From Oceanispirochaeta sp. (lineage in GTDB: Bacteria > Spirochaetota > Spirochaetia > DSM-2461), in assembly GCA_963666275.2 (NCBI GenBank), contig CAXXOA010000001.1, positions 1,152,001-1,216,000 on the forward strand: 64,000 bases of DNA, read 5' to 3'. The translations under genes were made by a program, and so were the position numbers. The notes below the pieces were generated by a model that did no database searches, had not been told where the DNA came from, and worked only from the letters and a program-made list of their open reading frames with translations. Position 1 is the first letter of the stretch; each line of letters opens with the position of its first letter. Shown one piece after another: positions 1 through 40,290 of the stretch.

Positions 1-24
1 TGTAAGGGGTCTTAAATATTTCAT
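1..24 (-). CDS. 5' end of a gene running off the left window edge (MKYLRPLT...)
   Basis: Minus-strand ATG at 24 preceded by a GGGAGAG SD-like sequence; frame open to the edge; co-oriented with the pel-like genes. Confidence 0.5.
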
Positions 25-132
25 GGAAGCTCTCCCTGCACCCCCCGGATATTCCTTCTCACAGGGGAAAGGGCCATAGGGGGTACAGGTTTCCAGTATA
101 CAGCAGAGCAGATACGGGGAAAAGCGGAAACT

Positions 133-1176
133 CTAGAGATCGTATTCCGAATAGAGCTCAATACTGAAAGAGTCTCCGAAGGTGGGAACAATTTCCGAGT
201 TGACTTTGGTAGTCTTTTTGTTGTTGGTTGTAATTTCATCCCGGATGACTGTTTCCGAAAGGGTCTCCGCATCATCGCCCTGGGTGTAGCTGGTTCCGAA
301 GATCTGATCGAACAGCAGAGAGAGATAGTTACCCGCTGTCTGGTCAAAGGTGGTTTCGGTGGAGACGATCCTTTCCAGGCTGTAGGAAGTTCTATAATAC
401 TTTCCACTGCCTTCATCCGATTCGGTGTAGTAGCGTACACCGAAAACTTCCTTGCTGTCCCTGTACCAGTAGTCCACCCATTCCTCAATTTTCTGATAGT
501 AGTAGACCTTGCTGCTCCAGTTCATGGCACTATTCAGGGTGGGGCTCCAGGAATCAGAGGGCATACTCATACTGCCGTTGATATCAAAATGGGCATACTT
601 TTCATCATTGGCATCAGTAACAATCCATTCATACCGGACACTGCCGTCCTGATAATGGAGTTCCATGGTTTCCCGGGCTGTTGTTTTCACTACCCAGGCA
701 GAACCGTTCCACTCAACCACTTCATCTGCTGTGGTCCAGTTGCCATCGGCATCGCTGTCTTTCAGATAATACTCTTCCAGGTAGTAGTCAAAAATATCCT
801 CTTTTCTGGGATATTCTGTTCTGGCGGAGATTTTATAGACAGGATCACTGTTGTTGGTAGTCGCTGAAACTGTGTAAAAAGTTTTCATTCCCTGTTCGGG
901 ATAGTTGGTAACGAATGAACCATCCTGACCCAGACTGATCAGAGTGGAGAATACTTTTGTTTCGGTAAAATTCAGAGGATTAATGCTGGCCCTTTCAGAA
1001 CCGGCATCAGTCAGGGGTGTGTCGTCGCCGGCCATCCAGTAGTAGCCCGACAGGATATAGTCTTCGCCGTCGTCGCTGCTGCTTTTGCCGTTGTCGAAGA
1101 CATTACATCCTGTCAGTAGAATAGAAATAGTTATAGTAATTATTATCAATGAAAATCGTAGTTGTTTGTCTGTCAT
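133..1176 (-). CDS. Lipoprotein of unknown function, Trp/Tyr/Asp-rich
   Basis: Hydrophobic signal ending in lipobox LLTG-C; GGAGG SD upstream; 347-aa ORF. Confidence 0.75.
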   Translation of the reverse strand: MTDKQLRFSLIIITITISILLTGCNVFDNGKSSSDDGEDYILSGYYWMAGDDTPLTDAGSERASINPLNFTETKVFSTLISLGQDGSFVTNYPEQGMKTFYTVSATTNNSDPVYKISARTEYPRKEDIFDYYLEEYYLKDSDADGNWTTADEVVEWNGSAWVVKTTARETMELHYQDGSVRYEWIVTDANDEKYAHFDINGSMSMPSDSWSPTLNSAMNWSSKVYYYQKIEEWVDYWYRDSKEVFGVRYYTESDEGSGKYYRTSYSLERIVSTETTFDQTAGNYLSLLFDQIFGTSYTQGDDAETLSETVIRDEITTNNKKTTKVNSEIVPTFGDSFSIELYSEYDL

Positions 1177-1319
1177 CTCGTACCTCCCGTAAGGGTCGCG
1201 GCCTCTTTCTGCCGCGGTTTTAATATTTTTTTAACTTCTTTAAATTCAGGCAGTTAAGTATATACGTGTAAGTAGTTTTATAATACTGCATTGAGAGGCA
1301 AAAAACAAATTTTCCCCTC

Positions 1320-2732
1320 TTATTTGATGATTCCCGCTTTGCTTTTCAGAATGGGGATCTCCCGGAGCTGTTTTTCCACCACCGAAGCGTAGATGATCCT
1401 GTCCAGAGAGTGGAGATCCCGGAAGAGGGATATCACAAGGATCCCCGTCCCCAGTAGACAGCCGCTGAGGGCTGACACTCCCGGGGTGGCAAAGAATGCC
1501 AGCCGCGAACTGGCCAGGGCCCCCGCCGTATTGATGGCAAAAAAGACAAGGGAGCCCAGAAGGGCCGTTCTGTATCTCTGAATATAGAGAAGGAAGTTCA
1601 TGGACGCCAGGAAGAGGTCCAGGATGAATATTCCCGCCGCAGTGACGCAGACCATCAGGAAGCTCTCTCTCATGGAAGGGGAGAGCCGGGAGAGACGGAG
1701 AAAGAGCAGGAGCACCACCCCCTGCAGGGCGGACTGTTCGCTCAGGATAAACCGGGTTGTCTGAATGAGTCTGTACATATTCCATTTGATGGTTTTGTAG
1801 GGTTTCCGGCTCAGGCTGTCCAGAAATTTTCTCAGAACAATATAGAACTCCGTTTCCGAGAAAATCACAAAAAAGACAAGTCCGGGAATCATCATCAGGT
1901 TTGTGAGGTACACAACGATGTCATAGGGTTCATAGAGTTTCATCAGGGTCCCCTCAATAAAATCCCCCCGGAGGTACCAGAATATCATCTTGTCGACCCA
2001 TAAGGCGCCGTAATAGAAAAAGCCCAGCAGAAAAAGGGATCTGTTCTGTCGTATGTAGGATCGGAACAGTCCCGTCAGGCTCACCTTTCTGTAACCCATC
2101 TCTCTGTATAGGAAGGTCAGGAGCAGTAGAAAAATAAGAAGCTGTCCCGCCGTATAGGCCATAAGAAGGAAAGACGTCCCCAGGGCAATGGCTGCTCCTC
2201 TGAGAAACACCAGGGAGGCGGCCATTCCCAGGACATAGATTCCCAGAAGCAGATTGAACTGTTTCATTGCCGATGCGGTGAGCATGAGGATCCATATATG
2301 GTTCACTATGATAAAGAGCAGTACAAATGCAGCCCTGTGCAGGGGCGGAACAGACTGCATAAAGACCCCCTGCAGGATCACAGCGGGAATAAGCAGGATC
2401 AGGGAGGACACCCCCAGGTACCGGAGAGTCAGCCCCATGGCTTTGTCCATGGCATTCCCGTAAAGAAAATCCGAAAGGATTCTTGTGAAAATGTAGTGAA
2501 AGCCCCCTGTCAGGATCAGGGAAAAGGAGTAGATATAAATGGTGGAGGAGATAAAAAGCCGGCGGAACTCCAGGGGGATCCCCATAAAGGGCTGCTGAAA
2601 GAGAAGGATCGTCAGGATCGATATAATCCAGGGCCCCGCCACGATCATAATTCCCGACACAGAAGCCTGGAAGACTCCTCCCGCGCTTCCCCGGGAGGCA
2701 ATTTTTCTCAGTTCAAAACCAATCCCCGCCAT
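1320..2732 (-). CDS. pelG: Pel exopolysaccharide transporter PelG (MOP/MATE-like)
   Basis: Hallmark N-terminus MAGIGFELRK and AGPW motif, about 12 TM segments, WVDK and ETEFY motifs; directly follows pelF. Confidence 0.9.
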   Translation of the reverse strand: MAGIGFELRKIASRGSAGGVFQASVSGIMIVAGPWIISILTILLFQQPFMGIPLEFRRLFISSTIYIYSFSLILTGGFHYIFTRILSDFLYGNAMDKAMGLTLRYLGVSSLILLIPAVILQGVFMQSVPPLHRAAFVLLFIIVNHIWILMLTASAMKQFNLLLGIYVLGMAASLVFLRGAAIALGTSFLLMAYTAGQLLIFLLLLTFLYREMGYRKVSLTGLFRSYIRQNRSLFLLGFFYYGALWVDKMIFWYLRGDFIEGTLMKLYEPYDIVVYLTNLMMIPGLVFFVIFSETEFYIVLRKFLDSLSRKPYKTIKWNMYRLIQTTRFILSEQSALQGVVLLLFLRLSRLSPSMRESFLMVCVTAAGIFILDLFLASMNFLLYIQRYRTALLGSLVFFAINTAGALASSRLAFFATPGVSALSGCLLGTGILVISLFRDLHSLDRIIYASVVEKQLREIPILKSKAGIIK

Positions 2733-4139
2733 CTATACTTCTCCGGTCCGGCGCATATTTTCATAGATCCCGCGGAATCTGCGGTGCAGGTCCTTTTTAT
2801 CGTAGAAATTCAGAACTTTCTGCTTGTTCTTCTCTCCCAGTTTTTCCATCTCTTCGGGATTGTTGTATACAGTCAGAATTCCCTCGGCAATTTTACTGCT
2901 GTTTTTGGAGGGAGAAAGGAAGCGTTCGTCGTAATTGAGCAGTTCCGGGACATTTCCGACTGCCGTGGAGACCGATGGAATACCCGAACAGTAGGCTTCC
3001 AGAATCACAAGCGGCTGGGCCTCCCTGACGCTTGTCAGTACAAGAACATCGATGAATTTGTAGTATTCCCTCACATCCTGCCGTCCTGTGAACTCAAAAA
3101 CATCCTGCATTTTCAGATTCTCCACAAGCATAAGGCAGTCCTCGTAGTAGTCGGGATCCTCATCCGTGGGGCCGATGCAGTAAAAACGGGCTTCCGGAAC
3201 CCTGTCGGCAACAATTTTACAGGCCGCAATAAAGGTTTTGATATCCTTGATGGGAACCACCCTTCCCACAAGGCCCACATGGAAACCCTTCCGGGGCTCC
3301 CGCGGGAGGGTGAATCTTTCCACATCAATGCCGTTGGGGATCACTTCTGTCCGTTCCCGGGGGGCCCCCAGTTCCAGCTGTTTCTGACGGTTCTCCTCGA
3401 ACAGGGCGGTAATGTAGTCCGCTCTGGTGTAGCAGATCTGGCTCAGCCGGTTGTACATCTGAGTCCACATATCCCGCTGATACCCCCTGACAAGGTTTGT
3501 CTTCCGGATTTCCATCTCCCTCTCTTTATGATAGAGGCCGTGCTCCGTCAGAAGGAAGGGCCTGTTTCTTCTGTAATGGGCTGCCAGGGAGGCGATTCCG
3601 GCAAATCCTGTGGAAACAGCATGATAGATGTCCGCTTCGGGAGGAGACGCTCCCAGAACACTGAAGAGCATATCATGGGAGGACTTCCAGGCCCAGTAGT
3701 AGTCCGCAAAAGGGTAGAGGGGATTGTTCCGGCTGTTCCCCTGTTTGATCAGTTTCCATCCCAGGGGGGATTCCACCGCTTCCCTGAAGAGGTAGGTCCC
3801 CTCAGGCATAAGGCGGAAGATCTCTCCGATATCCGGAAGCTTCCCCGTCCGCATCTGCTGGTGAAAGCGGAAGAGAACTTTCATCAGTTTTCTCATCCCC
3901 CGGGGATTCTTCCTGGCTTCCCCGGGAAACTCTCCCAGTACCACATCCACGGTCTCCACCACATTGGGAGGGAGTTCATACCTCAGGGGCTGATCTTTTA
4001 CAGGAGAAATCGTAAAAAGTTTGAAATCCACTTCGGGAAGGTTCTGTATCAGGTCATGAACCCAGGCGGAGACGCCTCCGGTGATATAGGGGTAGGATCC
4101 CTCCAGAACAATGCAGACTGTGAGCCTGGGATTATGCAT
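2733..4139 (-). CDS. pelF: GT4 glycosyltransferase PelF (DUF3492 + Glycos_transf_1)
   Basis: EGSYPYITGGVSAW, HAVSTGFAG, LTEHGLY, GRVVPIKD and EAQPLVILEA motifs; start trimmed to ATG 4139. Confidence 0.93.
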   Translation of the reverse strand: MHNPRLTVCIVLEGSYPYITGGVSAWVHDLIQNLPEVDFKLFTISPVKDQPLRYELPPNVVETVDVVLGEFPGEARKNPRGMRKLMKVLFRFHQQMRTGKLPDIGEIFRLMPEGTYLFREAVESPLGWKLIKQGNSRNNPLYPFADYYWAWKSSHDMLFSVLGASPPEADIYHAVSTGFAGIASLAAHYRRNRPFLLTEHGLYHKEREMEIRKTNLVRGYQRDMWTQMYNRLSQICYTRADYITALFEENRQKQLELGAPRERTEVIPNGIDVERFTLPREPRKGFHVGLVGRVVPIKDIKTFIAACKIVADRVPEARFYCIGPTDEDPDYYEDCLMLVENLKMQDVFEFTGRQDVREYYKFIDVLVLTSVREAQPLVILEAYCSGIPSVSTAVGNVPELLNYDERFLSPSKNSSKIAEGILTVYNNPEEMEKLGEKNKQKVLNFYDKKDLHRRFRGIYENMRRTGEV

Positions 4140-4869
4140 TTTCACCTTTCCAGAAGGAGAGGATCTCCCTCTCCTGTTCACTGAGGTGGCTTTCCTTTTT
4201 GAAAGCTGAAAGGATCCTGTTTATTCCCGGAATATCCCGCCTCTCATAGGCCAGTTCCAGCTCTATCAGCCGGCTCTTCCTTTCCGGCGGCAGAAGCTGC
4301 TTTGCCTGATCATAGAGCTGCAGGGTAATCAGGATGCGGATCAGAAGAAAGCGCTCCTTTTCTTCCGCAAGGTTTCTGTTTTCCAGGTCTCCCAGCAGCA
4401 GATAGGCTTCTTTCAGATAGAAGTTCCTGAGGATCTTCTCCTCCCTGTTCATCAGGGCCAGGTGGTAGTAGACTTCCGCTGCCGATGAGGTCATTCCGGG
4501 AGTGGGGTTTTCCCTGATCTGCCGCTTCAGATCCGAGAGTTTTGTGTTGTACTCTTTTTCGATGGCATTCAGACTCTCCGCCGCAAAGAGGGCCACTTCC
4601 TTGTCCTTGTACTGGGATATTTCGCTCAGGACCTTTTTGAGCAGAAGATTGGTTTCCAGATCCCTCTCCTTCCGGGACAGGAGCCACTCTATTTCATCCA
4701 GATTGTAGGGTTTCTTGATGATGGGATTCAGCCCTGTGGATTTGTAGATAAGAGCCTCTATGGGAAGAAGCCCCTCCTCACAGGCCTGAAGGGCCGCCGA
4801 GGGAGTCCTGGGAGTGAAATAGTTTTTCCGTTTCTGAATATAGGCGTAGGGAGAGTTCCGGGAAATCAT
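4132..4869 (-). CDS. PelE-like HEAT/TPR helical protein, apparently without TM anchor
   Basis: Sits between pelD and pelF with overlapping stop/start codons; KDKEVALFAAESLNAIEKEY resembles the PelE helical motif; TPR-like C-half. Confidence 0.6.
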   Translation of the reverse strand: MISRNSPYAYIQKRKNYFTPRTPSAALQACEEGLLPIEALIYKSTGLNPIIKKPYNLDEIEWLLSRKERDLETNLLLKKVLSEISQYKDKEVALFAAESLNAIEKEYNTKLSDLKRQIRENPTPGMTSSAAEVYYHLALMNREEKILRNFYLKEAYLLLGDLENRNLAEEKERFLLIRILITLQLYDQAKQLLPPERKSRLIELELAYERRDIPGINRILSAFKKESHLSEQEREILSFWKGENA

Positions 4870-6257
4870 ATCTTCTGAATCTCCAGAAGGTATTCGGCCC
4901 GTTTCATCATATCGTCGGGATCCATTTTTTCACTGATTCCGCAGGAGGCATAACCCAGATTGATTTCCAGGGGGATCTGTTCTCCCCTGACTGTCCAGAT
5001 GCTGTTGTTTATAAGCTCCAGACTCTCCAGGCAGAAGAGGGAACAGCCGTCGAAGTCCAGAGAGGGGATAAAAAGGGCCATCATCGAATCTTCCCTGTAA
5101 TGGAAGAGTTCGGGCAGGGCGGAACTCTTCTCCGGCAGTTTCCGTATAACCTGAAGCTGGAGCTTCCGGATCTCCTCCAGGCCGTATTTTTCTATAAGAT
5201 CCCGGAAGTCCATGAACTCCAGAAGGATCAGACTGGAGGAGTTGGCTGTTGCGTTTTCCTCGTAGGTATATTTTTCCATGATTCTGTAAAGCTGGGTAAA
5301 CTGGGGGAGCCCCGTTACAGGATTCTCCTCTTCCTCCACAAGAAGGGACTCAAAGTCCAGGGCTCTTTTCAGCGCCGGCTGGGAGAGGCTTATGATGATC
5401 TGCACCAGATTTTCGGTGTAGCTGCTGTACTTGATAAAGGGAAGCTTTTCGATATTCAGTACACCCCAGGTTCTGTTGTCCAGCACAACGGGGCAGCAGA
5501 TAATGCTCTCTTCCAGATTCAGGCTGTTCAGGTTCTCATAGTCCATGGCCATGCGCAGGGAAAACAGCTGGTTGTTCCGGAAAACCCAACCCTCGATGGA
5601 ACTCTTCAGTTCCACCTCTTCCCGTTCTGATTCCATTTTTTCCGTTCCCTTCCTCATTTTGAGTTTCAGGGTATTGGTTTCACTGTGAAATACCCATAAA
5701 GAGAGGCTTGAGGCTTCGGTAAAATGGATGATCGTGTCCAGCATGATCGATATGCTTTTGCTTGTGTCCAGGCAGTCTATTTCCTGGATCCTCTGATACA
5801 GAAGATTCAGTGAGGTCCTCTGCCTTGTCACCCGTTCCTCCAGTTCCCGTATGATATCCTGCTGGGCATTGGAAATCTCCCGGAGTTTGCTCTGGGAGTC
5901 CGAAAGCCTTCTGAACCGGGTGAGGATTTTGTCGATCTGATAGAGCCTGAACTGATTCAGAGAGCCTCCCAGGTAGGAGAGGGTAATCCCCAGAGTTGCA
6001 TTTATCAGAATTTCCTCTATATTCAAAGTAGGATCGCCCAGAAGAAACTGTCCTGTCTGAAACAGAAGCTGAATCAGGAAATAACTGAGCAGTCCCGCTG
6101 TTCTGCCGTGCCAGAAAGACAGGAACAGCGCGGTCACAAGGATGGCAGTCTGCCTGGACGGAAAGATAATCTCCGACTGGGGAAACAGGAGGCCTGCTCC
6201 GATGATAAAAGAAATTAGTATTGTTTCAGGAATTATCCTGCGCTTTTTCAGGTGCAT
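4866..6257 (-). CDS. pelD: PelD-like protein: TM region, coiled coil, GAF, degenerate GGDEF
   Basis: N-terminal TM helices, coiled coil, GAF (CCPVVLDNRTWGVLNIEKLPF), GGDEF-fold C-terminus (NPVTGLP...INLGYA); start trimmed to ATG 6257 to avoid overlap with the divergent gene. Confidence 0.75.
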   Translation of the reverse strand: MHLKKRRIIPETILISFIIGAGLLFPQSEIIFPSRQTAILVTALFLSFWHGRTAGLLSYFLIQLLFQTGQFLLGDPTLNIEEILINATLGITLSYLGGSLNQFRLYQIDKILTRFRRLSDSQSKLREISNAQQDIIRELEERVTRQRTSLNLLYQRIQEIDCLDTSKSISIMLDTIIHFTEASSLSLWVFHSETNTLKLKMRKGTEKMESEREEVELKSSIEGWVFRNNQLFSLRMAMDYENLNSLNLEESIICCPVVLDNRTWGVLNIEKLPFIKYSSYTENLVQIIISLSQPALKRALDFESLLVEEEENPVTGLPQFTQLYRIMEKYTYEENATANSSSLILLEFMDFRDLIEKYGLEEIRKLQLQVIRKLPEKSSALPELFHYREDSMMALFIPSLDFDGCSLFCLESLELINNSIWTVRGEQIPLEINLGYASCGISEKMDPDDMMKRAEYLLEIQKI

Positions 6258-6318
6258 TATAGAATAAAAGTATAAATTATATAGAGTATTATTGTATATT
6301 AGCATGGAGACGAAAATA
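6258..6318. promoter_or_regulatory. Short AT-rich divergent promoter region
   Basis: 61-bp very AT-rich gap between head-to-head pelD-like and TPR/barrel genes. Confidence 0.5.
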
Positions 6319-9300
6319 ATGGTTAAAAATATATACATTCGATCCGGTATGGTCTGGGGGATGCTTTTTCTCCTGTTCACTCCGGGGACGCTGTTTTCCC
6401 AGGAGTCTGCCGGGACGGGGACGGAGGAACAGGACGGGGCGCAGATGATCCCGAAAGCTTCGGCCGTTAAACTGACACCTGTTTTTCCCGATGCGGAGGA
6501 AGGGCTCATCTATATAGAGGGAGAAGATGCTGTTTCCACCAATTTCGCCACCTCACCGGTTTACAATTACGGCGCCTCCTCCTACCGTTCCCTTCAGCTG
6601 ATTCAGCAGAACTCTCCCTACGGGGGGCAGGCCTACTATGCGGAATATGCCTTTTATGTGAAAGAACCGGGTGAGTATGCCTTCTGGTACGGAGGAACCC
6701 CTACCGGACCGAAAGAGGATATCTTTCCCTCCTATGCCAGTCCTTTCCGGTATCTTCTGGATAATCAGGAGCCTGTTGAGGTCTACAGGGAGAATCAGTC
6801 TGTGGTTCAGGCCTATACGCCTTCCTATTACTGGAATGAGATCGGCACCCTCACCCTGGAGGAAGGTGTTCATACCCTGCGTTTTGAAGTCTCGGAAAAG
6901 AGGCGTTTCGACGGGCAGTTCTACTTTTTTCTGGATGCTTTCTTTTTTCTGAAAACCGAAAGGATGGAGGAGGAGCTGACCCTGGTTCCTCCGGTTTTTC
7001 CCTCGGCCAGGACGGACAGATCCATTGACAACCCCTTTCAGTCCATCGCCTTTTACGAAAATATCATCCAGGAGAACCCGGGCAATAAAAATGCCTACAT
7101 TGTTCTGTCCATGGTGTACTCCCTTCTGGGGGACTACCTGAATGCTATCAGAAATCTCAACAGCGCCATCAATCTGGATGGCGAGGATCCCTATCCGCTC
7201 CTTTTGATGGCTAAAAACAGGATATGGAACGGAGAGGTTACCACGGGGCTGAATCTGTACAGGCAGCTGGTTACCCTGGCTCCGGATAATCCCGCCTACT
7301 GGGCCGAAGCGGGCAAGGTAGCCGCCTGGACGGGAAAATACAGAGATTCGATTGATTTTTTTACCCGGGGGCTGGAAATCTTTCCGGATGATCTGAATCT
7401 GATGGTCAACCTGGGGCTGACCTATCTGTGGATGTCCCGGGGGGAAGAGGCGGAAAATCTCTTTCAGGAGGCTATGGACAGCGTTGAGGGAGATCACGAC
7501 CGGGTGATGGACCTGGGACAGATCCATGAACTGAGCGGTTATCCTCAGAATGCGGTGGAGATCTACGCCCGGGAGATAGCCCGGGCGCCGGAGTTTCTGG
7601 AAACCTATCTGGCCCTTGAAAAGTCCTATCGGAGCGCCGGAGACAGGGATAAGGCGGCCAGGGTCATTGAGCTGATCTACGATTCTTTCGAAGAGAGTCC
7701 GGCATTTGTCTCCTATATGAATGTGTACGAACAGCAGGTGCAGCTGAAGCAGAGCATCCTGGACAATTACAGGGAAGAGCTGGAGACAAATCCCGATAAT
7801 ATCTCACTCAGACAGGAACTGGCCCAGACCTACTTCTGGAACGGCCTGAAAGAGGAGGCCGTGGATGAATCCCTGAGGATCCTTGTGAACAAAATGTTTC
7901 TTCTATTCCGGGATTTTGACACCCAGGCCCGGGAGCTGCTTGAAACGAGGGATACCCTTGCCTACAGAAGCCGGGAATTTGCCGAACTGGATGAGACCTA
8001 TGAAAAAGAGATGGATCAGCTGGAATCCCTCTTTGACAGCTATATAAAGACCGGAGAGTCCCTGAAGAAGAAACCCGATGATCCGGAACTGGCTGTCCAA
8101 TTGGAAAACCTTTCCCTTACCCTTTCAGAGGCCTTTCTCCGGGCGGAGTCCCGCAACCGGGAACTGGAGGCCTTCAAAGAGAGGCTGGAAGATCTGCAGA
8201 TCCGATGGAATGCCCTTTCAACAGAGCAGACCCGGGAAGAGGAGCTGTTCCGTCAGCTTCTGGGAGATCTCGAATGGTCCTGGGACAGGGATTTCACCAA
8301 AGCCGAGCTTCAGCAGGTCCAGAGGAATGAACCTTTTCTCTCAGGGTACATACAGGGACGGCTGGCCATGATAGAGGGGCGGAACACAACGGCAGTCCGC
8401 TTTCTGGATCAGCAGGTCTTTTCCGACTCACCTTTTGCCAGGTACGGCCTCTACCAGAGCCTCCTCTGGATGGGGGACGAAGAGGGGCGGAAGGCCATGT
8501 GGGAGAACGAAGCGGATGTGCTGACCCTGTACAGGCAGAATCTCTTTGATCTGGAAGCCTCCGGGATCAGCACAGATGACAGCGGCGCATTCTATATTCC
8601 CCGGGAGGAGGATATTCTTCTCCTCTCGGAAACCGCAGCCCGTGAGGCGGCGGAATTTGATCAGTACCGGTCTGTACTGCAGCAGCTGGAGCAGGAGGTC
8701 CTGATGAGTCTGGATGCGAAACTGAACCGTCAGATCTACAATCTGGAACAGGATACCTACAGACTCCGCTATGAGCTGGGTGATTACTATCTTGATATGG
8801 GTGAGAACCTGAAGGCTTCCCTCCAGTATGACCGCGTGCTGGCTATGGATCCCTGGAACATCAGTGCCAACTACAAACTGGGCGTGGTCAGTCAGAGATA
8901 CGGGAACTGGTACAGAGCCATGCAGCAGTACAGGAAAGTCTACTATCATAATCCCCTCTATGAGAATGCCGCCAGTTACTACAATCAGCTTGCCAGGGCT
9001 CATGCGGATACGGTTCATATCACCGCGCAGAATATCACGGATCCCTCCCGGATCTCCCATCAGGGGAAGGCGGACTATACCAGAAATATTACAGACAGGC
9101 TGGGATGGGGATTCTCCTATCAGATGGATGTGGACAGTCTCTACAGAACTTACGGCACGGAAGATCCGTCCTCTTTCAAACTCCAGACCCTGGATCTGAA
9201 AGTCCCTCTGACTTTTCCTCTGTGGGATCTGCAGGTGACCCCTTTCGGCGGGTTTCATCTTTTCAACAGATTTTTCGGTTCCAGCTATGATTTCAATCCC

Positions 9301-10029
9301 TACCAGCCGGTCTCCCTGGAGGAGAACAGGACCGCTTCCACCCTTCAGCCCCGGGGAGGAGTGGATGTGAACTGGAAACAGGATTTTCTGACAGCATCGG
9401 GTATCTATACCTATGAACTGGAGGATGATTCCCTCTTTGAGGGAAGGAATCTCACAACGGTTCATGCCCTGGATCTGTCGGCGGATACCTACTTTCCCCT
9501 GGCAGACAAAGAGAGTCTGGGGCCCGTTACGACCAGGACCTTCGGCTCTTTGAAAGTTCTGAACAGTGAAGATGCTGTTCAGGGAAATCGCGTCTATCAG
9601 ATTGTTCAGGAAGCGTCTTTGGGATACACCCTGTCGGAAAAACCCTCTTTCAGAATTACAGGAAACGGGCTTTTCAATTTTGAAAACAGCAGCGAGACCC
9701 CTGTGACTGACTACTATGCGCCGGAAGATGTCTTTGAACTGAAAGGCGGACTCAGAGGGACCCTGGGGGTTCATAACGCCTCGTATACGGAAAATCTGGA
9801 ACTCAGTCTCTACGGCAGCGGCGGATCCTACTGGTCCGGTGGAGGGGATCCTTCCCTGAAACTGGAGGGACAGTTCAGCGTCTATTATGTGAAGGATACG
9901 ATGATGCTCTATCTGATTGCCGGAACGAACGGGACCTTTACGGACGGAATATCCGAGGCTCCCGGATACTGGGAGGTTTCGGCGACTCTGGGCTGCCGCC
10001 TGAATGTGCCTTCACTTCTGGTGCCCTGA
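6319..10029 (+). CDS. Large exported TPR protein with CBM-like N-domain and beta-rich C-terminus (candidate PelB analogue)
   Basis: Signal peptide (...GTLFS/QES); beta-sandwich motifs IEGED...LEEGVHTLRF...LD; many TPRs; coiled coil; C-terminal ~350 aa of alternating aromatic/Gly beta-strands; GGAG SD before ATG 6319. Confidence 0.7.
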   Translation: MVKNIYIRSGMVWGMLFLLFTPGTLFSQESAGTGTEEQDGAQMIPKASAVKLTPVFPDAEEGLIYIEGEDAVSTNFATSPVYNYGASSYRSLQLIQQNSPYGGQAYYAEYAFYVKEPGEYAFWYGGTPTGPKEDIFPSYASPFRYLLDNQEPVEVYRENQSVVQAYTPSYYWNEIGTLTLEEGVHTLRFEVSEKRRFDGQFYFFLDAFFFLKTERMEEELTLVPPVFPSARTDRSIDNPFQSIAFYENIIQENPGNKNAYIVLSMVYSLLGDYLNAIRNLNSAINLDGEDPYPLLLMAKNRIWNGEVTTGLNLYRQLVTLAPDNPAYWAEAGKVAAWTGKYRDSIDFFTRGLEIFPDDLNLMVNLGLTYLWMSRGEEAENLFQEAMDSVEGDHDRVMDLGQIHELSGYPQNAVEIYAREIARAPEFLETYLALEKSYRSAGDRDKAARVIELIYDSFEESPAFVSYMNVYEQQVQLKQSILDNYREELETNPDNISLRQELAQTYFWNGLKEEAVDESLRILVNKMFLLFRDFDTQARELLETRDTLAYRSREFAELDETYEKEMDQLESLFDSYIKTGESLKKKPDDPELAVQLENLSLTLSEAFLRAESRNRELEAFKERLEDLQIRWNALSTEQTREEELFRQLLGDLEWSWDRDFTKAELQQVQRNEPFLSGYIQGRLAMIEGRNTTAVRFLDQQVFSDSPFARYGLYQSLLWMGDEEGRKAMWENEADVLTLYRQNLFDLEASGISTDDSGAFYIPREEDILLLSETAAREAAEFDQYRSVLQQLEQEVLMSLDAKLNRQIYNLEQDTYRLRYELGDYYLDMGENLKASLQYDRVLAMDPWNISANYKLGVVSQRYGNWYRAMQQYRKVYYHNPLYENAASYYNQLARAHADTVHITAQNITDPSRISHQGKADYTRNITDRLGWGFSYQMDVDSLYRTYGTEDPSSFKLQTLDLKVPLTFPLWDLQVTPFGGFHLFNRFFGSSYDFNPYQPVSLEENRTASTLQPRGGVDVNWKQDFLTASGIYTYELEDDSLFEGRNLTTVHALDLSADTYFPLADKESLGPVTTRTFGSLKVLNSEDAVQGNRVYQIVQEASLGYTLSEKPSFRITGNGLFNFENSSETPVTDYYAPEDVFELKGGLRGTLGVHNASYTENLELSLYGSGGSYWSGGGDPSLKLEGQFSVYYVKDTMMLYLIAGTNGTFTDGISEAPGYWEVSATLGCRLNVPSLLVP

Positions 10030-10060
10030 ATCACAGGATAGAGGGGATACGGGGGATGTT

Positions 10061-10912
10061 TCAGATACGGAAGAGGCTTCGGCACTCCTGAAAAAGGGCA
10101 TCCTCTTTCAGGTCCTCAAGGAATCTCTCATGGAAATAGTCCAGCTGTTCCATTTTTATGCCGCTGTAGAGAAGATAGGGTTCCAGAGCCTGATGATCCT
10201 CTTCTGAAAAAGCCACGCTGTGGAGCAGAGTGGAGAGCATATCGGCTATGGTTATCAGAACAATCAGTTCCTTGTGGGAGGACTGGATATTGATGTTTCC
10301 GTGTTCTCCCGCCACATCCGCATAGAGACTGGGGAAATTCCAGCTGTTCATTACCTCTCTGCCCAGAGTGAGATGATCCATTCCGAAGATCCGGATCTCT
10401 TCCCGGCACATGTCATGCTCGTTGGGGCTGCCCAGGTTTATAATGATCTCATACCCCTCGGGCTTGCTCTCATGGAGGACGATCTGTCCGATGTCATGGA
10501 GGAGTCCTGCCAGGAAGGCTTCCTCTTTCAGCCGGCTCAGCCCGGAAATCTCAGAAAGTTTCCGGGCAATGAAGGCTGTGATGATTGAGTGCTGCCAGAA
10601 GTGTTTGTAAAAGGAGGAACTGCTTTTTTTCTGGAACATATTGGATGCGGTTATAAGCATCACCAGGCTTTTGATGGCTTTGAAGCCCATCAGGGAAATG
10701 GCCGTCTGCAAACGGGTTATCTGCTGCTGTCTTGCATAGAGGGCCGAGTTGGCCACTTTGAGAACTTTGGCGGTGAGGCCGGGATCCAGGCTTATCAGAT
10801 CTTCCAGTTCTGAAAAAGAGACATCTTCCAGATCTTCCGCATAGGTGAGGATCTTAGCGGCCACGTCAGGCATCACCGGAATGATTTTTAAAATTTTGTC
10901 GTACTGTCCCAT
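10061..10912 (-). CDS. HDOD domain protein
   Basis: DPGLTAKVLKVANSA, FWQHS, AGLLHDIG, DH...G..W.FP motifs. Confidence 0.92.
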   Translation of the reverse strand: MGQYDKILKIIPVMPDVAAKILTYAEDLEDVSFSELEDLISLDPGLTAKVLKVANSALYARQQQITRLQTAISLMGFKAIKSLVMLITASNMFQKKSSSSFYKHFWQHSIITAFIARKLSEISGLSRLKEEAFLAGLLHDIGQIVLHESKPEGYEIIINLGSPNEHDMCREEIRIFGMDHLTLGREVMNSWNFPSLYADVAGEHGNINIQSSHKELIVLITIADMLSTLLHSVAFSEEDHQALEPYLLYSGIKMEQLDYFHERFLEDLKEDALFQECRSLFRI

Positions 10913-11017
10913 TTGAATAAAAACCGTTTCATTTATAGAATAAAGTTGTTAAAATTATATACAGGAATTGAATTGATACAATAAAAAGAATATGGTTTTT
11001 CTGTGAGGAGAAAGTTG

Positions 11018-12016
11018 ATGGCAGATGTAAAATGGGGTGTCTTGAGTACGGCTAAGATTGGAATGAAGCAGGTGATTCCCGGAATCCAGGGATCCAGGGG
11101 AAATACTGTGCATGCCATTGCCTCCCGGAATGCCGCAGCGGCTGCCGAAGCCGCAGCCGAGGCGGGAATTCCCGTTTCCTACGGCAGTTATGAGGAGCTT
11201 CTGGCCGATTCTGATATTGAGGTTGTCTATATTCCGCTGCCCAATCATATGCATGTCGAGTGGAGCATTAAGGCCATGGAAGCGGGAAAACATGTCCTGT
11301 GTGAGAAGCCTCTGGCCCTGAATCAGGAGGATCTTCAGAAACTGATGGATGTGAGCAGAAAAACTGGAATGGTGATTCAGGAAGCCTTCATGGTCAAACA
11401 CCATCCCCAGTGGAAAACTGCAAAGAAAATTGCCGGTGACGGGACTCTGGGTGAGTTGAAAGCCATTCAGGGTATTTTTGCCTATTACAATGTTGATGAG
11501 GGAAATATAAGGAATATTCCCGAGTACGGCGGAGGCGGTATCTGGGATATCGGCTGTTATCCCGTAGTCACTTCCCGGTATATCTTCGGTGAAGAGCCTT
11601 TAAAGATCTGTTCCATGGTGGAATATGATCCCGTAATGAGGATCGACAGGCTGGCTTCGGTTATGATGCAGTTTCCTTCGGGCCAGGCATCCTTTATCTG
11701 TTCTACCCAGATGGTGGGAACCCAGACAATGGAGCTTCTGGGAACAGAAGGCCGTCTGCAGGTGGAGATCCCCTTCAACGCACCGCCGGATAAACCCTGT
11801 CATATTTTCCTTTCCAAGGGAGAGTTCTATCAGGACCAGTGGCAGCTCCTGGACTTTGATATCTGCAACCAGTACGGTCTGGAGGCGGAATCCATGGTCA
11901 GAACCATCCGGGGAGAAGAAGAGTCTGTCATGTCCCTGGAGGACTCCCTGAATAATCTGAAAGCTCTGGAAGCGATCTTCCGTTCCGCCGGATCCGGAGC
12001 CTGGGAAGAGGTCTGA
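11018..12016 (+). CDS. Gfo/Idh/MocA family oxidoreductase
   Basis: WGVLSTAKIG, VYIPLPNHMH, KHVLCEKP, GGGIWDIGCY; AGGAG SD. Confidence 0.92.
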   Translation: MADVKWGVLSTAKIGMKQVIPGIQGSRGNTVHAIASRNAAAAAEAAAEAGIPVSYGSYEELLADSDIEVVYIPLPNHMHVEWSIKAMEAGKHVLCEKPLALNQEDLQKLMDVSRKTGMVIQEAFMVKHHPQWKTAKKIAGDGTLGELKAIQGIFAYYNVDEGNIRNIPEYGGGGIWDIGCYPVVTSRYIFGEEPLKICSMVEYDPVMRIDRLASVMMQFPSGQASFICSTQMVGTQTMELLGTEGRLQVEIPFNAPPDKPCHIFLSKGEFYQDQWQLLDFDICNQYGLEAESMVRTIRGEEESVMSLEDSLNNLKALEAIFRSAGSGAWEEV

Positions 12017-12138
12017 ATCGGGAAAAGATGTTTTCTTTAAATTGAATTTTTTGTTAATACGCATTATGTTCTAATTGAGTTCTGGATTACTATTAAAAAA
12101 TATATGTTAAAATTTTGTCTGCTTAAGGAGATTTGAAA

Positions 12139-12423
12139 TTGATTAAACACGTGGTTATGTGGAAATTGAAAGATCCTACCAAAGCCGCAGGGCTTAAGAA
12201 TGCTATTCTGGGTATGAAAGGTAAAGTTCCTTCTCTGATCGATATTGAGTGCGGGGTCAACTTCACTGAAGGCGATGCCGCCTGTGATCTGGTACTTATT
12301 TCTACCCATGAGAGCCGGGAAGCCCTGGATATCTATCAGGCGGATCCTGTTCATGGCGAGGTAAAGAAACTTGTAGGTCCCGAAGCGGCATCCCGTCATG
12401 TTGCTGATTTTGAGATGGGCTGA
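12139..12423 (+). CDS. Dabb family stress-responsive A/B barrel protein
   Basis: IKHVVMWK...Y..DPVH...DF pattern; AAGGAG SD before TTG. Confidence 0.85.
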   Translation: MIKHVVMWKLKDPTKAAGLKNAILGMKGKVPSLIDIECGVNFTEGDAACDLVLISTHESREALDIYQADPVHGEVKKLVGPEAASRHVADFEMG

Positions 12424-12453
12424 GTCGGGAGTATTGTCTAAACAGGAAGATAT

Positions 12454-13686
12454 ATGAAAGAGGAAAGACTGGATAAAATCCTTAAGATTGACCAGGATCT
12501 TAACCAGACTCAGGACCTGGATCTCATTCTGGAAAGGATTTTATCCTATGCCAGAGAAGCGGTTTCTGCAGACGCCGGTTCCATCTATATCATGGATGGC
12601 AATGAGCTCGAAATCCGCTACTCCCAGAATGAAACTCTCCAGAAGAAGCTTCCCCCGGGAAAAAAACTCATTTATTCCATTTTCAGAATTCCCATTAATG
12701 AAAAAACCATTTCAGGCTACGTTGCGGATCACGGAACCCATGTGAACTGTCCCGATATGTATAATATCCCGGAGAGCTGTCCCTACAGTTTCAGTACCCA
12801 TTATGATGATATTTCAGGATATAAAACTGTCTCCTCCCTGACCTTCCCCCTGAAAACCAATCAGGGTGAGGTCCTGGGGGTTCTGCAGCTGCTGAACTCT
12901 AAAGACAGCCAGGGGAATGTGGTTCCTTTTCTGAAAGAGGATGAACCCTTTGTCCTTCACTTTGCCAGTACGGCCACAGTGGCTCTTCAGAGAGCCAAAA
13001 TGACACGTACGCTCCTTTTAAGGATGATACAGATGGCAGAGCTGCGGGATCCCAAGGAAACGGGAGCCCATGTTAACAGGGTGGGGTCCTTTGCCTGTGA
13101 GATCTATGAGGCCTGGGCTGTGAAAAAAAAGTATTCCACAGACAGGATCGAGAAAGAGAAAGACATTCTCAGAATGGCTTCCATGCTCCACGACGTGGGA
13201 AAAGTGGGTATCTCCGATCTGATTCTCAAAAAACCGGCCAGGTTCAATGAGGACGAGTATAAAATTATGCAGTCCCATACCTATATTGGTGCCCGTCTTT
13301 TTGACAATAAAGAGTCCGAACTGGATCTGATTGCCAGGGATATTGCCCTGAGGCATCATGAAAACTGGGACGGAACTGGTTATCCCGGAAAGATCGAGTG
13401 GCAGGAATACAAGACCATGGAAGAACAGTCCATCGGGGGTGCTGAAAAACCCGAAGGTCTCAAAGGGGAGGAAATACCCCTGTTTGCCCGGATTGTTGCC
13501 ATTGCGGATGTCTTTGATGCCCTTTCGTCCAAAAGGGTCTATAAAGAGGCCTGGACAGAAGATGATGTTATCAATGAGATCAGAAGGACCAGGGGAACCA
13601 AATTCGATCCCGAACTGGTGGATATCTTTTTAGAGATCCTTCCGGTGCTGCGTCATATTCAGGAAAGATACCCGGATATTGAGTAA
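12454..13686 (+). CDS. GAF + HD-GYP c-di-GMP phosphodiesterase
   Basis: GAF N-domain; ETGAHVNRV, LHDVGK, HHENWDGTGYP, ARIVAIADVFDAL. Confidence 0.92.
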   Translation: MKEERLDKILKIDQDLNQTQDLDLILERILSYAREAVSADAGSIYIMDGNELEIRYSQNETLQKKLPPGKKLIYSIFRIPINEKTISGYVADHGTHVNCPDMYNIPESCPYSFSTHYDDISGYKTVSSLTFPLKTNQGEVLGVLQLLNSKDSQGNVVPFLKEDEPFVLHFASTATVALQRAKMTRTLLLRMIQMAELRDPKETGAHVNRVGSFACEIYEAWAVKKKYSTDRIEKEKDILRMASMLHDVGKVGISDLILKKPARFNEDEYKIMQSHTYIGARLFDNKESELDLIARDIALRHHENWDGTGYPGKIEWQEYKTMEEQSIGGAEKPEGLKGEEIPLFARIVAIADVFDALSSKRVYKEAWTEDDVINEIRRTRGTKFDPELVDIFLEILPVLRHIQERYPDIE

Positions 13687-37488: not shown

Positions 37489-38181
37489 TCAAGCTTTGCT
37501 TCGCATATATTCCTTAATCTCTTTCAGTGCGTTCTCCAGATGGATGAGCATAGCTTTTTCTGCTCCTGCGGGATCCCGTTCTTTAATGGCTTGATACACA
37601 TCTCTATGTTCATTAACGGTCTTTTCCGCCCTCTCGGGAATGCTAAGACTGGAAATCCAGCCTTCATTCAGGTTTTCAGACATGGTCTTCATAAGAGCAT
37701 AAAGACTTCGGTTGTTGGTGGATTTGGCCATAAGAAGGTGGAACTTCCTATCCGCCTTTATCTCACCTTCCAGATTTTTTGCCTGAACCTGTTCATCGAA
37801 CAGGTTCAGTTGCTCTTCCATATCCCGGATGTCTTTTTCCACCGCATTCCGTGCGGCAGAGGCCGCTGCCTTAGGGTCCAGGATCATCCTCAGTTCAAAA
37901 TGTTCATCCAGTTGGGAACTATTGCTCCTCAACCAAGAGGCGAAGTTGTCCATTCCTTGTTCCAGCTTGTTCTGTATAAAAATCCCTTTGCCCTGACGGA
38001 CGCTGACCCGTCCGGAAATCTCCAGGATACGAACCGCTTCACGGATTGACGCCCTGCTTACATCTAGTTTCTTTGAGAGTTCGTTTTCCGAATAGAATTT
38101 GTCTCCGTTGCCAAATCCCTCCTCTCTGATCATCCGGTCTAGCTCTTCGACCACCTGTTCCGAAAGTCTTGATCTTCTCAT
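37489..38181 (-). CDS. FadR/GntR family transcriptional regulator
   Basis: SENEL...VSRASIREA...G.V..RQGKG wHTH; FCD domain (D..FH, EH). Confidence 0.92.
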   Translation of the reverse strand: MRRSRLSEQVVEELDRMIREEGFGNGDKFYSENELSKKLDVSRASIREAVRILEISGRVSVRQGKGIFIQNKLEQGMDNFASWLRSNSSQLDEHFELRMILDPKAAASAARNAVEKDIRDMEEQLNLFDEQVQAKNLEGEIKADRKFHLLMAKSTNNRSLYALMKTMSENLNEGWISSLSIPERAEKTVNEHRDVYQAIKERDPAGAEKAMLIHLENALKEIKEYMRSKA

Positions 38182-38209
38182 AAATTACTCCAGCATTCTT
38201 ATAGGATGT

Positions 38210-38257
38210 CTACTTATCAGACAAGTGATTGTAGCAGTTATCCTAAAGAGCTGTCAA
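38210..38257 (-). promoter_or_regulatory. Sigma70 promoter + FadR-type operator (copy 1)
   Basis: Minus strand TTGACA-N18-TACAAT followed by the quasi-palindrome ACTTGTCTGATAAGT. Confidence 0.7.
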
Positions 38258-38392
38258 ACTCAGTCCACCTTGAAAAAACTACCGCTTCATTGATGGATTC
38301 CGCCAAGTTTCTCATTCTCTATGACTAAGACCTTGATGTAGTTTTCGTTTTAGCCTTCCTTGAATTAAATTGCAGATATACATAGTAGATGA

Positions 38393-38440
38393 CTACTTAT
38401 CAGACAAGTTGAGGTTAACATGGCTTATAGGGGTTGTCAA
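38393..38440 (-). promoter_or_regulatory. Sigma70 promoter + FadR-type operator (copy 2)
   Basis: Minus strand TTGACA-N17-TAACCT followed by an identical 17-bp ACTTGTCTGATAAGTAG. Confidence 0.65.
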
Positions 38441-38454
38441 TAAAAAAATAATGA

Positions 38455-38637
38455 ATGAATTGCAGAGATCCGCCTTTCGGACTGAATGTATTCATCATGC
38501 AGAAAATCTCGGGAGTTCCTTTCTATGAAATTATTAGGGAGCTGGTACCTTTTATGATTGTACTACTCATAACGCTGCTGCTGATGGTATTCTTTCCCAA
38601 TCTGATTATGGCCATTTCCAATGCTGTTTATGGATGA
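38455..38637 (+). pseudogene. C-terminal remnant of TRAP large permease DctM
   Basis: PPFGLNVFI...PF......L...P is the last ~55 aa of DctM; the rest is absent. Confidence 0.75.
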
Positions 38638-38866
38638 CAAGAAGAAATAAGCACATCTCATTGTATTTGAAAAGTAAAGCCAGGAAACCTATAAAGTTAT
38701 CCGGGATTTAATTTTATTTCCTCATTACATCCGTTCTATAAGTTCTGAAGTAATTTTTCTAACAAACGTCCTTCCTGTTAACAGCTCATAATAAAAAGCA
38801 AAAATAAAACCTTAATTTGAAACCCGATTCTTCTCTAACCTATAATAAAGGCAAATAAGGTGACCA

Positions 38867-39997
38867 ATGATTGAAGTAGACTTGATTACAATAATTTTCA
38901 TATACAATACATCCCTTTTCAGTGGTGCAATTGCATTTCTGTATCTTCTTATTCATTCTCTTGAAACTACGGGACTGAAACAACTGGCTATAGCCTATGC
39001 CTTACTGGGGGTTGGTTCTATTATTGCCGGTTTAGGAGAATTTTCAATTTTTCCTTTATTCCTGTGGGCTAATCTCAGTTTCCTTATGGGAATAGTTGCC
39101 TATTCTCTGTTTTTTGCAGGATTTGTTTCTCTGAATCGGGATAGAAACAAAATGGTTTTCAGAGTAATGGGTATCCTGCTGGTCTCTGAGATTATCGTAG
39201 CTCTTTTTACAGATCTCTGGCATGTTGACAGGATAAGGGCGACTTCCTTTCATCTGGTAGCAGCAGTCTCCCTTTTTTATTCCGGGATAAACGTATTAAG
39301 AAAAAAGAGATTTGAAAAGCTGAATGCCCGCTGGCTTCTTTCGATCAGCTTGATGATTGGAGGACTGGCCTTCTTTTTTACCATGCTGGCTCTTATTTTC
39401 CAGGAGGTATACTTCGCTATTGTTGCTCTGAATTTTTCATTTCAGATATTTATAAATTTTCTCGTTACGATCTTTACTTATGCACTTGTTAAAGAACGAG
39501 TGGAAAAACAGTTACAAGCCATTTCTCTGATTGATCCTTTAACCAAAGTTGGAAATAGAAGATGGCTTGAAGCAAACAAACCGGTTCAAATGAGACAGAA
39601 GGACTCAATCCTAATGATTGATTTGGATCATTTTAAGGATGTTAATGACAGTTATGGCCATCAGATGGGAGATATGGCACTCTTTAGAGTTGCTGAAAAG
39701 ATTGAATCTATTCTTAGAAAAAACAGTCTTTTTGCCCGTTATGGAGGAGAGGAATTTATTGCTTTTATACCCAATGTTTCTAAAAACATAGTTCTTAATA
39801 TCGGAGAAAGGATCAGAAAGGAAGTTGAACAAATGGAATTTTCCCATTCTCCTCAGGACTTTAAGCTAACAGTCAGTATCGGAATCTGCTGGAATAATGG
39901 TTCATTCAAGTCTTTTGAAGAAATGACTAAAATCTCAGATGAAGCCCTCTACGCTGCTAAAAATACCGGGCGAAACAAGGTTGTGCAGAAAGGGTGA
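38867..39997 (+). CDS. Membrane-bound GGDEF diguanylate cyclase (low GC)
   Basis: About 7 TM; DPLT..GNRR, IDLDHFK.VND.YGH, RYGGEEF; no RxxD I-site. Confidence 0.92.
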   Translation: MIEVDLITIIFIYNTSLFSGAIAFLYLLIHSLETTGLKQLAIAYALLGVGSIIAGLGEFSIFPLFLWANLSFLMGIVAYSLFFAGFVSLNRDRNKMVFRVMGILLVSEIIVALFTDLWHVDRIRATSFHLVAAVSLFYSGINVLRKKRFEKLNARWLLSISLMIGGLAFFFTMLALIFQEVYFAIVALNFSFQIFINFLVTIFTYALVKERVEKQLQAISLIDPLTKVGNRRWLEANKPVQMRQKDSILMIDLDHFKDVNDSYGHQMGDMALFRVAEKIESILRKNSLFARYGGEEFIAFIPNVSKNIVLNIGERIRKEVEQMEFSHSPQDFKLTVSIGICWNNGSFKSFEEMTKISDEALYAAKNTGRNKVVQKG

Positions 39998-40290
39998 CCC
40001 CGGCTCTTTAATATGTACCATGTGCAAAATTGGTTTTCAGCCTATTTAAGCAATAGAGGCTGAGAGAAAAAAGAGATTCACCGAAGAACAGATTGTAAAA
40101 AAGCCTGAATGAGAGGGTTGCCGAACTTTCATTTGATAACATGGCTCAGAAGGAACTCATAAAAAAATTTGCGAACCGGAGTAAAGAAACAGGGTGTACA
40201 TCATCTGATTCAGAACTTCGGGATATCAGTCAGGAGAGCATTTATACTAGCTTCAGAAGAACACATTCCTGTTGATTTGCCGCAGAACCG
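39995..40290 (+). mobile_element. Degenerate, internally deleted IS3-family element; right end approximate
   Basis: TGACC... start; OrfA fragments RKKRFTEEQIVK and LNERVAELSFDN..KELIKKF; A7 slippery site at 40161-40167; OrfB start GVHHLIQNFGISVRRA. Confidence 0.7.

Follow-up and report, generated by a model that had tools for sequence, protein, structure and literature searches.

In this study, we explored a Pel-type exopolysaccharide locus in a 64,000-nt stretch of the genome of an Oceanispirochaeta sp. (G000:C1:1152001-1216000, in the following the window; genome G000 is 97% complete). The locus is a real and conserved Pel variant, though not a categorically new system. An earlier reading of the window from its letters (the sequence-only reading) had placed such a variant in a spirochaete, and this is borne out: pelDEFG are identified by profile, the giant neighbouring gene is co-conserved with them, and 79 of the 80 nearest PelF loci are titled as spirochaetes and the remaining one as 'uncultured bacterium'. 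It is very probable that a core Pel synthase is combined here with a single exporter of 1236 amino acids (aa). We regard as moderately probable the complete picture, in which a spirochaete PelDEFG synthase hands its polymer to a CBM-TPR-barrel exporter working without a PelC ring, probably without deacetylation in this organism and under HDOD-linked control.

Pel synthase core and predicted outer-membrane exporter

In window coordinates, the synthase and exporter genes are located as follows:
1320..2732, minus strand: pelG, 470 aa, inner-membrane exporter (PF16933)
2733..4139, minus strand: pelF, GT4 glycosyltransferase (NF038011)
4132..4869, minus strand: pelE, 245 aa, shortened, without N-terminal membrane helices
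4866..6257, minus strand: pelD, 463 aa, with membrane region, coiled coil, GAF domain and a degenerate GGDEF domain without the RxxD motif for cyclic di-GMP (c-di-GMP)
6258..6318, no strand: putative divergent control region, 61 bp, AT-rich, between pelD and the exporter gene
6319..10029, plus strand: predicted outer-membrane exporter, 1236 aa (AlphaFold2 model, structural matches, co-occurrence)

The four minus-strand genes follow each other in pelDEFG order and are, as the sequence-only reading had stated, coupled, with an ATGA overlap, an 8-bp overlap and a 0-bp gap at the successive junctions. PelF passes the NCBIfam profile with 335 bits (cut-off 100) and PelG the Pfam profile with 232 bits (cut-off 29), and the E-x7-E motif of PelF matches that of three canonical PelF proteins. 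Profile scans gave no Pel family match for PelD and PelE and no PelD Pfam match; therefore, their spirochaete homologues were aligned (77 rows for PelD, 102 for PelE, duplicates partly removed) and compared with three annotated proteobacterial operons from Pseudoalteromonas (L174), Paraburkholderia (L175) and Azonexus (L176), which served as canonical references. By hhalign, PelD matched the three canonical sequences with 96.5% (E 8.7e-10) and PelE with 98.7% (E 2.2e-16, over 181 columns), and searches of the PDB returned GAF and GGDEF matches for PelD. A separate comparison supported the GGDEF fold of PelD at 98.5%. Spirochaete PelF forms its own long-branched clade (102 rows; Shimodaira–Hasegawa-like approximate likelihood ratio test, SH-aLRT, 99) and is at most 39% identical to plasmid-borne PelF.

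Distribution was followed in two samples. The first is a panel of 61 genomes, 24 of which contain PelF, 22 with the same type as here (at least 52% identity) and two with a divergent one, so that 39 other genomes (61 minus 22) serve for comparison. The second consists of 107 distinct pelF loci, 59 of them with at least 7.5 kb upstream and at least 6.5 kb downstream; four of these fell outside the spirochaete clade of the tree and were dropped, leaving 55 loci for the counts given below. Two loci, L088 and L089 (G441, G453), represent a second spirochaete pel type, which is Gram-positive/Fusobacteria-like and features a divergent PelF, an extended PelG and DUF2194, with no exporter or HDOD match.

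The exporter gene starts at an ATG at position 6319 on the plus strand, with GGAG located 9 nt before it (in the database, the gene is called from 15 nt further upstream, giving 1241 aa), and lies head-to-head with pelD, whose ATG is at 6257 on the minus strand, across the 61-bp gap that had been described for the giant TPR/beta gene. The protein is predicted to comprise a signal peptide (by eye), a CBM35-like domain at about aa 60-214, TPRs at 243-456, a long helical stalk at 461-826, further TPRs after the stalk and a 16-stranded beta-barrel at 897-1230. An AlphaFold2 model of aa 37-1236, computed from a 60-sequence alignment, reached a mean predicted local distance difference test score (pLDDT) of 89.6. 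When compared with 48,161 chains by VIA-align, it matched best to PgaA (Z 27.1, root-mean-square deviation (rmsd) 2.3, 279 aligned), followed by BcsC (Z 22.8 and 22.4) and PelB (9h80, Z 22.6), all top four matches being polysaccharide export barrels and the fifth reaching only Z 16.3. The N-terminal beta-sandwich matched CBM35 (Z 12.5, rmsd 2.6, 124 aligned), and ESM features independently gave 0.94 for the PgaA barrel, 0.91 for BcsC and 0.88 for PelB. Sequence searches of the PDB with alignments of the exporter barrel and the CBM returned nothing significant.

The exporter is present in all 22 genomes with this PelF type and in none of the 39 others. It accompanies pel at 48 of the 55 loci, where four arrangements occur: at 40 loci it is divergent, as in G000, at 6 it follows downstream on the pel strand and at 2 it is placed differently. 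For the five tested of the seven loci lacking it, it was found elsewhere in the genome each time. From its model, the protein is predicted to be a structural equivalent of PelB and PgaA, with an export principle that is already known. The remodelled export module of the sequence-only reading holds as a distinct exporter, not as a new principle of export.

Copies of the exporter's N-terminal domain, as many as six per protein, are found in unrelated large proteins that also have Ig-like domains (P0117, P0132, P0133 and others), and some of its tandem relatives match GH115_C or DUF5077, which marks an unnamed CBM-like family. In another class of the phylum, an exporter of about 1665 aa (L057 12733-17730; L059, L060, L090) has the same CBM-TPR-barrel architecture (hhalign 100%, barrel 97.8%) and continues into FlgD-type Ig and OmpA-like domains, a possible peptidoglycan anchor. 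Two genomes with this longer exporter contain two pelFG sets around it, together with DUF2194, GH114 and a glmS-like gene, and every pelG in them faces an HDOD gene.

In the divergent region (at 6258-6298), pelD lacks a ribosome-binding site, and a -10-like hexamer, also seen in congeners, lies about 11 nt upstream of its start; the pelD transcript is possibly near-leaderless. A promoter scan of the region gave a count of 12, near the chance expectation of 8.5 +/- 3.1, and Rfam gave no match in window positions 1-12500.

Altered PelD and PelE and the linked HDOD gene

While the sequence-only reading was right about the pel variant itself, its feature list omitted three characteristics of the locus, namely the loss of the RxxD motif in PelD, the loss of the membrane helices in PelE and an HDOD gene beyond the exporter:
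10061..10912, minus strand: stand-alone HDOD protein, candidate regulator, PF08668 at 166 bits, co-conserved with the locus

When aligned to the genome's own cyclases, the I-site of PelD reads SxxP. RxxD at this aligned position is found in none of the 77 PelD homologues, as against 39 of the 40 open reading frames (ORFs) with a GGDEF motif in G000. PelD keeps a conserved DxDG and C-terminal motif. In Bacillus cereus PelD, the RxxD residues are required for c-di-GMP binding (PMC7112168). A hydrophobic peak was found in only 3 of the 102 PelE rows, weak and never N-terminal, versus all three canonical PelE proteins.

The HDOD gene is present at 47 of the 55 loci, again in four arrangements: it lies upstream and on the pel strand at 35 loci, converges on pelG at 8 and is placed differently at 4. 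It stays linked to pel where the exporter has moved away, and we count it as part of the system. Of 69 HDOD sequences, 67-69 retain the pocket histidines and 53 the aspartate. Complex prediction for PelD (aa 144-463) with HDOD scored 0.00, which is no evidence either way. Because of the locus linkage and the lost RxxD motif, HDOD may act as a regulator of the Pel synthase, a proposal we make tentatively and to which we assign a little less than an even chance.

In the leftward flank, prfA and housekeeping genes accompany a carbon-nitrogen hydrolase and a diguanylate cyclase, and at 12454-13686 a GAF plus HD-domain protein, likely a c-di-GMP phosphodiesterase, is kept near the locus across the genus. 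Elsewhere in the window, at 38001-40000, the GC content falls to 0.38 compared with about 0.48 around.

The lipoprotein, PelC and PelA

Downstream of pelG, separated by a 143-bp gap, lies an accessory gene:
133..1176, minus strand: lipoprotein of an unnamed spirochaete family, lipobox LLTGC (by eye)

A lipoprotein and another gene start had been listed as following the four pel genes, and both are present; the lipoprotein is uncoupled from the operon, and the gene start, at position 24, belongs to the carbon-nitrogen hydrolase and lies outside the system, being a neighbour in the own genus only. This hydrolase was considered as a substitute deacetylase and ruled out, as it occurs in only 12 clustered loci, all of the own genus and beside prfA.

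The lipoprotein has no Pfam or NCBIfam match, its named homologues are hypothetical proteins of spirochaetes, and a second neighbour family of 486 aa is homologous to it (98.3%). All 7 of the long forms scanned carry a LamG (ConA-like lectin) domain at their end, and the N-terminal domain of the family is found in 15 of the 22 pel genomes and in none of the 39 others, nine further matches being to LamG only. The AlphaFold2 model (pLDDT 76.9) is a large beta-sheet, for which Foldseek gave no match at E 0.001; the best Z of 10.3, to assorted barrels at rmsd 4-6, and ESM Atlas values of at most 0.83 amount to a generic beta-sheet likeness. Among the conserved columns, Glu, Arg and Tyr are invariant, with no invariant or near-invariant His or Asp. 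Because of the lectin-domain fusion, we infer a polymer-binding envelope protein. Homology to PelC or PelA was ruled out (hhalign at most 6.4%).

The spacer between pelG and the lipoprotein gene (1177-1319) is AT-rich and contains a TGTATAAT-like element that is also seen in several congeners, which suggests a promoter of the lipoprotein's own; a hairpin at 1192-1221 was not seen in the congener spacers compared. Among congeners (L072, L073; L188, L189), the gene is tandemly duplicated in two, and two others hold an additional, long LamG-fused copy elsewhere.

In the 18 kb leftward of the locus, where a canonical set could have stood, there is no pelA, pelB or pelC. No PelC was found in the locus itself or, with a 3-sequence profile lacking a positive control, in any of the 61 genomes, the best local match reaching E 0.036 over 20 residues. 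For PelA, neither a 3-sequence PelA hidden Markov model (HMM), nor a spirochaete DUF2194 HMM, PF09960 or PF10096 identified a deacetylase in G000; PF04748 gave no match. As a positive control, the DUF2194 search returned matches above its cut-off in 8 genomes of the panel of 61, including 6 of the 22 pel genomes. The PelA-type gene is equally missing in 8 of 10 congeners. At 13 of the 55 sister loci, by comparison, a DUF2194 deacetylase of the Gram-positive type is encoded, and all 19 full-length copies have intact DD and HxxxH catalytic motifs, as described for PelA-DA in PMC13254593. The genes usually follow the exporter gene directly, which, with the intact motifs, ties the exporter to Pel processing. 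PelA is thus optional across the clade, and where present it is the Gram-positive type, paired with an outer-membrane exporter. The statement of the sequence-only reading that no pelA or pelC is recognisable consequently applies to the locus, and for PelA to the genome, and does not extend to PelA in the clade.

The 55 loci divide into 27 with the lipoprotein only, 11 with DUF2194 only, 2 with both and 15 with neither. We lean towards lipoprotein and DUF2194 being alternative states, not strictly so and following lineages on the tree. Strict replacement of PelA by the lipoprotein is ruled out by co-occurrence with DUF2194 in loci L083 and L084 and genomes G408 and G409; in G447, G451 and G455, the lipoprotein gene is unlinked to pel. 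Two further candidates were rejected as dedicated Pel parts: a 753-aa CE4 protein, the only one of three CE4 proteins that was profiled, which occurs in 47 of 61 genomes, and a lone GH114 on another contig of G000, found in 20 of 61 genomes and in only 8 of the 22 pel genomes.

Proposed export route, alternatives and known systems

We propose a model in which PelF would build an alpha-1,4-linked N-acetylgalactosamine (GalNAc) chain from uridine diphosphate (UDP)-GalNAc and PelD, PelE and PelG would move it across the inner membrane, both steps being transferred from Pseudomonas aeruginosa and B. cereus (PMC12345266). In the periplasm, the CBM of the exporter would capture the chain, its TPRs and stalk would carry it across, and the barrel would release it without a PelC ring. 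As far as profiles show, the chain would leave G000 without a dedicated deacetylase, the lipoprotein may bind or tether it at the envelope, and HDOD, as a subunit of its own that senses a nucleotide or a metal, may gate the synthase in place of the usual c-di-GMP site. As no modifying enzyme is recognisable and the standard c-di-GMP motif is missing, the product is likely a Pel with fewer modifications, and its switch likely differs from the usual one and may be HDOD. Whether the polymer of G000 lacks deacetylation altogether we consider an evenly balanced question.

Several observations weigh against this model. The genomes are kin and not independent samples, so that all co-occurrence counts are descriptive, and the exporter barrel cannot be matched by sequence to that of PelB (hhalign E 0.32; no PF24604 in G000). 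On the side of regulation, the third gene downstream of pelG encodes a diguanylate cyclase in this genus, by which c-di-GMP may still act. Furthermore, HDOD matches 27 of 61 genomes at the preset cut-off, and the pelF-negative genome G449 has a strong match; the strongest 23 matches comprise G449 and the 22 pel genomes, the line below them being drawn after viewing the list. As regards the polymer, both model species cannot do without deacetylation (PMC13254593 among the sources), G000 contains three unlinked CE4-domain genes, and two of the ten congeners, G408 and G409, keep a lone DUF2194 gene with intact motifs 30-37 kb from pel:
L181 9902-11950 and L182 9462-11441: lone DUF2194 of these congeners, without counterpart in G000
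Finally, the barrel region, with a net charge of -18, is no less acidic than in deacetylase-bearing loci (-6 to -29), which would suit a cationic polymer, although the count is not lumen-specific.

The alternative that survives best, unlikely as it is in our view, holds that c-di-GMP still switches the system, either because PelD binds it at a non-canonical site or because HDOD serves as its receptor or phosphodiesterase, the change being cosmetic. The 40 GGDEF-motif ORFs of the genome, the metal-pocket residues kept by HDOD and the motifs kept by PelD would agree with this, as would the HDOD protein SadB of Pseudomonas fluorescens, which is reported to bind c-di-GMP (cited in PMC12075610). 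Opposed to it are the complete loss of the RxxD required in B. cereus, the P. aeruginosa SadB, which did not bind c-di-GMP (PMC12075610), and the neighbouring cyclase, which is kept mainly within the genus.

It is improbable that the same synthase and exporter handle a polymer deacetylated by an unrecognised enzyme, either the lipoprotein, which would then have a new esterase fold, or one of the unlinked CE4 proteins. The largely complementary distribution of lipoprotein and DUF2194, the invariant Glu, Arg and Tyr, the acidic barrel and the requirement for deacetylation in the model organisms would all be accommodated. However, the lipoprotein lacks invariant or near-invariant His and Asp, its all-beta model matches no enzyme, it coexists with DUF2194 in some genomes and is unlinked to pel in others, and the one CE4 of the three that was profiled is too widespread to be Pel-specific.

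Less probable still is a drift of the clade to a different alpha-glycan, of another sugar, forming a capsule-like surface coat rather than Pel. This would be compatible with the long branch and low identity of PelF, the new CBM on the exporter and the lack of an epimerase cluster among the common neighbours. Yet sister loci carry the Pel-type deacetylase with intact motifs and, in some cases, a GH114 hydrolase (9 ORFs in 8 loci), and both enzymes act on alpha-1,4-galactosamine polymers in model systems. That the locus is a relic decaying in the genus after loss of pelA, which the missing PelA-type gene of G000 and 8 of 10 congeners could imply, is very improbable, since all seven genes persist in 10 of 10 congeners as full-length frames (PelF 72-83%, exporter 53-71% identical), only the lipoprotein being split in one congener and cut by a contig end in another.

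Compared with known systems, the proposed PelC-free route combines familiar elements. The P. aeruginosa-type pelABCDEFG shares the pelDEFG order and coupling, the PelD architecture and an exporter of TPRs and a 16-stranded barrel; here, in contrast, no pelC or bifunctional pelA was found, the exporter is encoded on the opposite strand, cannot be aligned to the PelB barrel and has an added CBM35-like domain and stalk, PelD is without RxxD, PelE is without membrane helices and HDOD is linked. With B. cereus pelDEA(DA)FG (PMC7112168, PMC13254593), the sister loci share the DUF2194 PelA-DA type, whereas the organism here is a diderm with an outer-membrane exporter, G000 is without DUF2194 and PelD manages without the RxxD that its B. 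cereus counterpart needs. The pel locus of Streptococcus intermedius (PMC12345266) already provides an example of a Pel system whose PelD does not bind c-di-GMP and which has additional accessory genes; there, PelD lost its GGDEF domain in a genus without cyclases, whereas here the domain is kept, only the motif is gone and the genome has its 40 GGDEF-motif ORFs. PgaA (poly-N-acetylglucosamine export, 4y25) and BcsC (cellulose export, 6tzk) are likewise single proteins of TPRs and a 16-stranded barrel and work without a lipoprotein ring (PMC12141448), but are only 9-10% identical to the exporter, which differs from them in serving a GT4 Pel synthase instead of a GT2 enzyme and in its N-terminal CBM.

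Literature searches on spirochaete Pel and on HDOD together with PelD, with subscription journals outside their scope, found no paper describing this system among the records listed. The string 'spiroch' is absent from the accessible main text of PMC7112194, PMC7112168 and the epsSMASH preprint (10.64898/2025.12.21.693542), the supplements of which may include spirochaetes, and the 18 supplements of PMC7112194 have spirochaete names in the genome list only; epsSMASH reports pel in 14 phyla plus distant pel-like operons. The combination of a PelC-free, PgaA-like exporter with CBM, an optional Gram-positive PelA, an RxxD-less PelD, a soluble PelE and a linked HDOD was not encountered in the literature searched.

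A bolder extension, which we hold to be doubtful, is that free-living spirochaetes possess a phylum-wide third Pel type, in which a one-protein exporter replaces PelB and PelC, a stand-alone HDOD protein replaces the c-di-GMP-PelD switch and lineages like the present one export neutral, fully acetylated poly-GalNAc, tethered to the surface by a new family of lipoprotein lectins. If this were true, deacetylation and the PelC ring would not be intrinsic needs of Pel export, and HDOD domains would gain a defined job. The same exporter is shared by sister genomes with and without a deacetylase. Such natural variants make it testable why PelC is needed, described as puzzling in PMC12141448, why export needs deacetylation, and what switches Pel when PelD does not bind c-di-GMP, an open question in PMC12345266. 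Through the linked gene, HDOD, a widespread domain of which few functions are known, becomes accessible to genetics. The locus also points to a matrix polymer in environmental spirochaetes, as PelG occurs in 21 of the 401 genomes sampled from the phylum.

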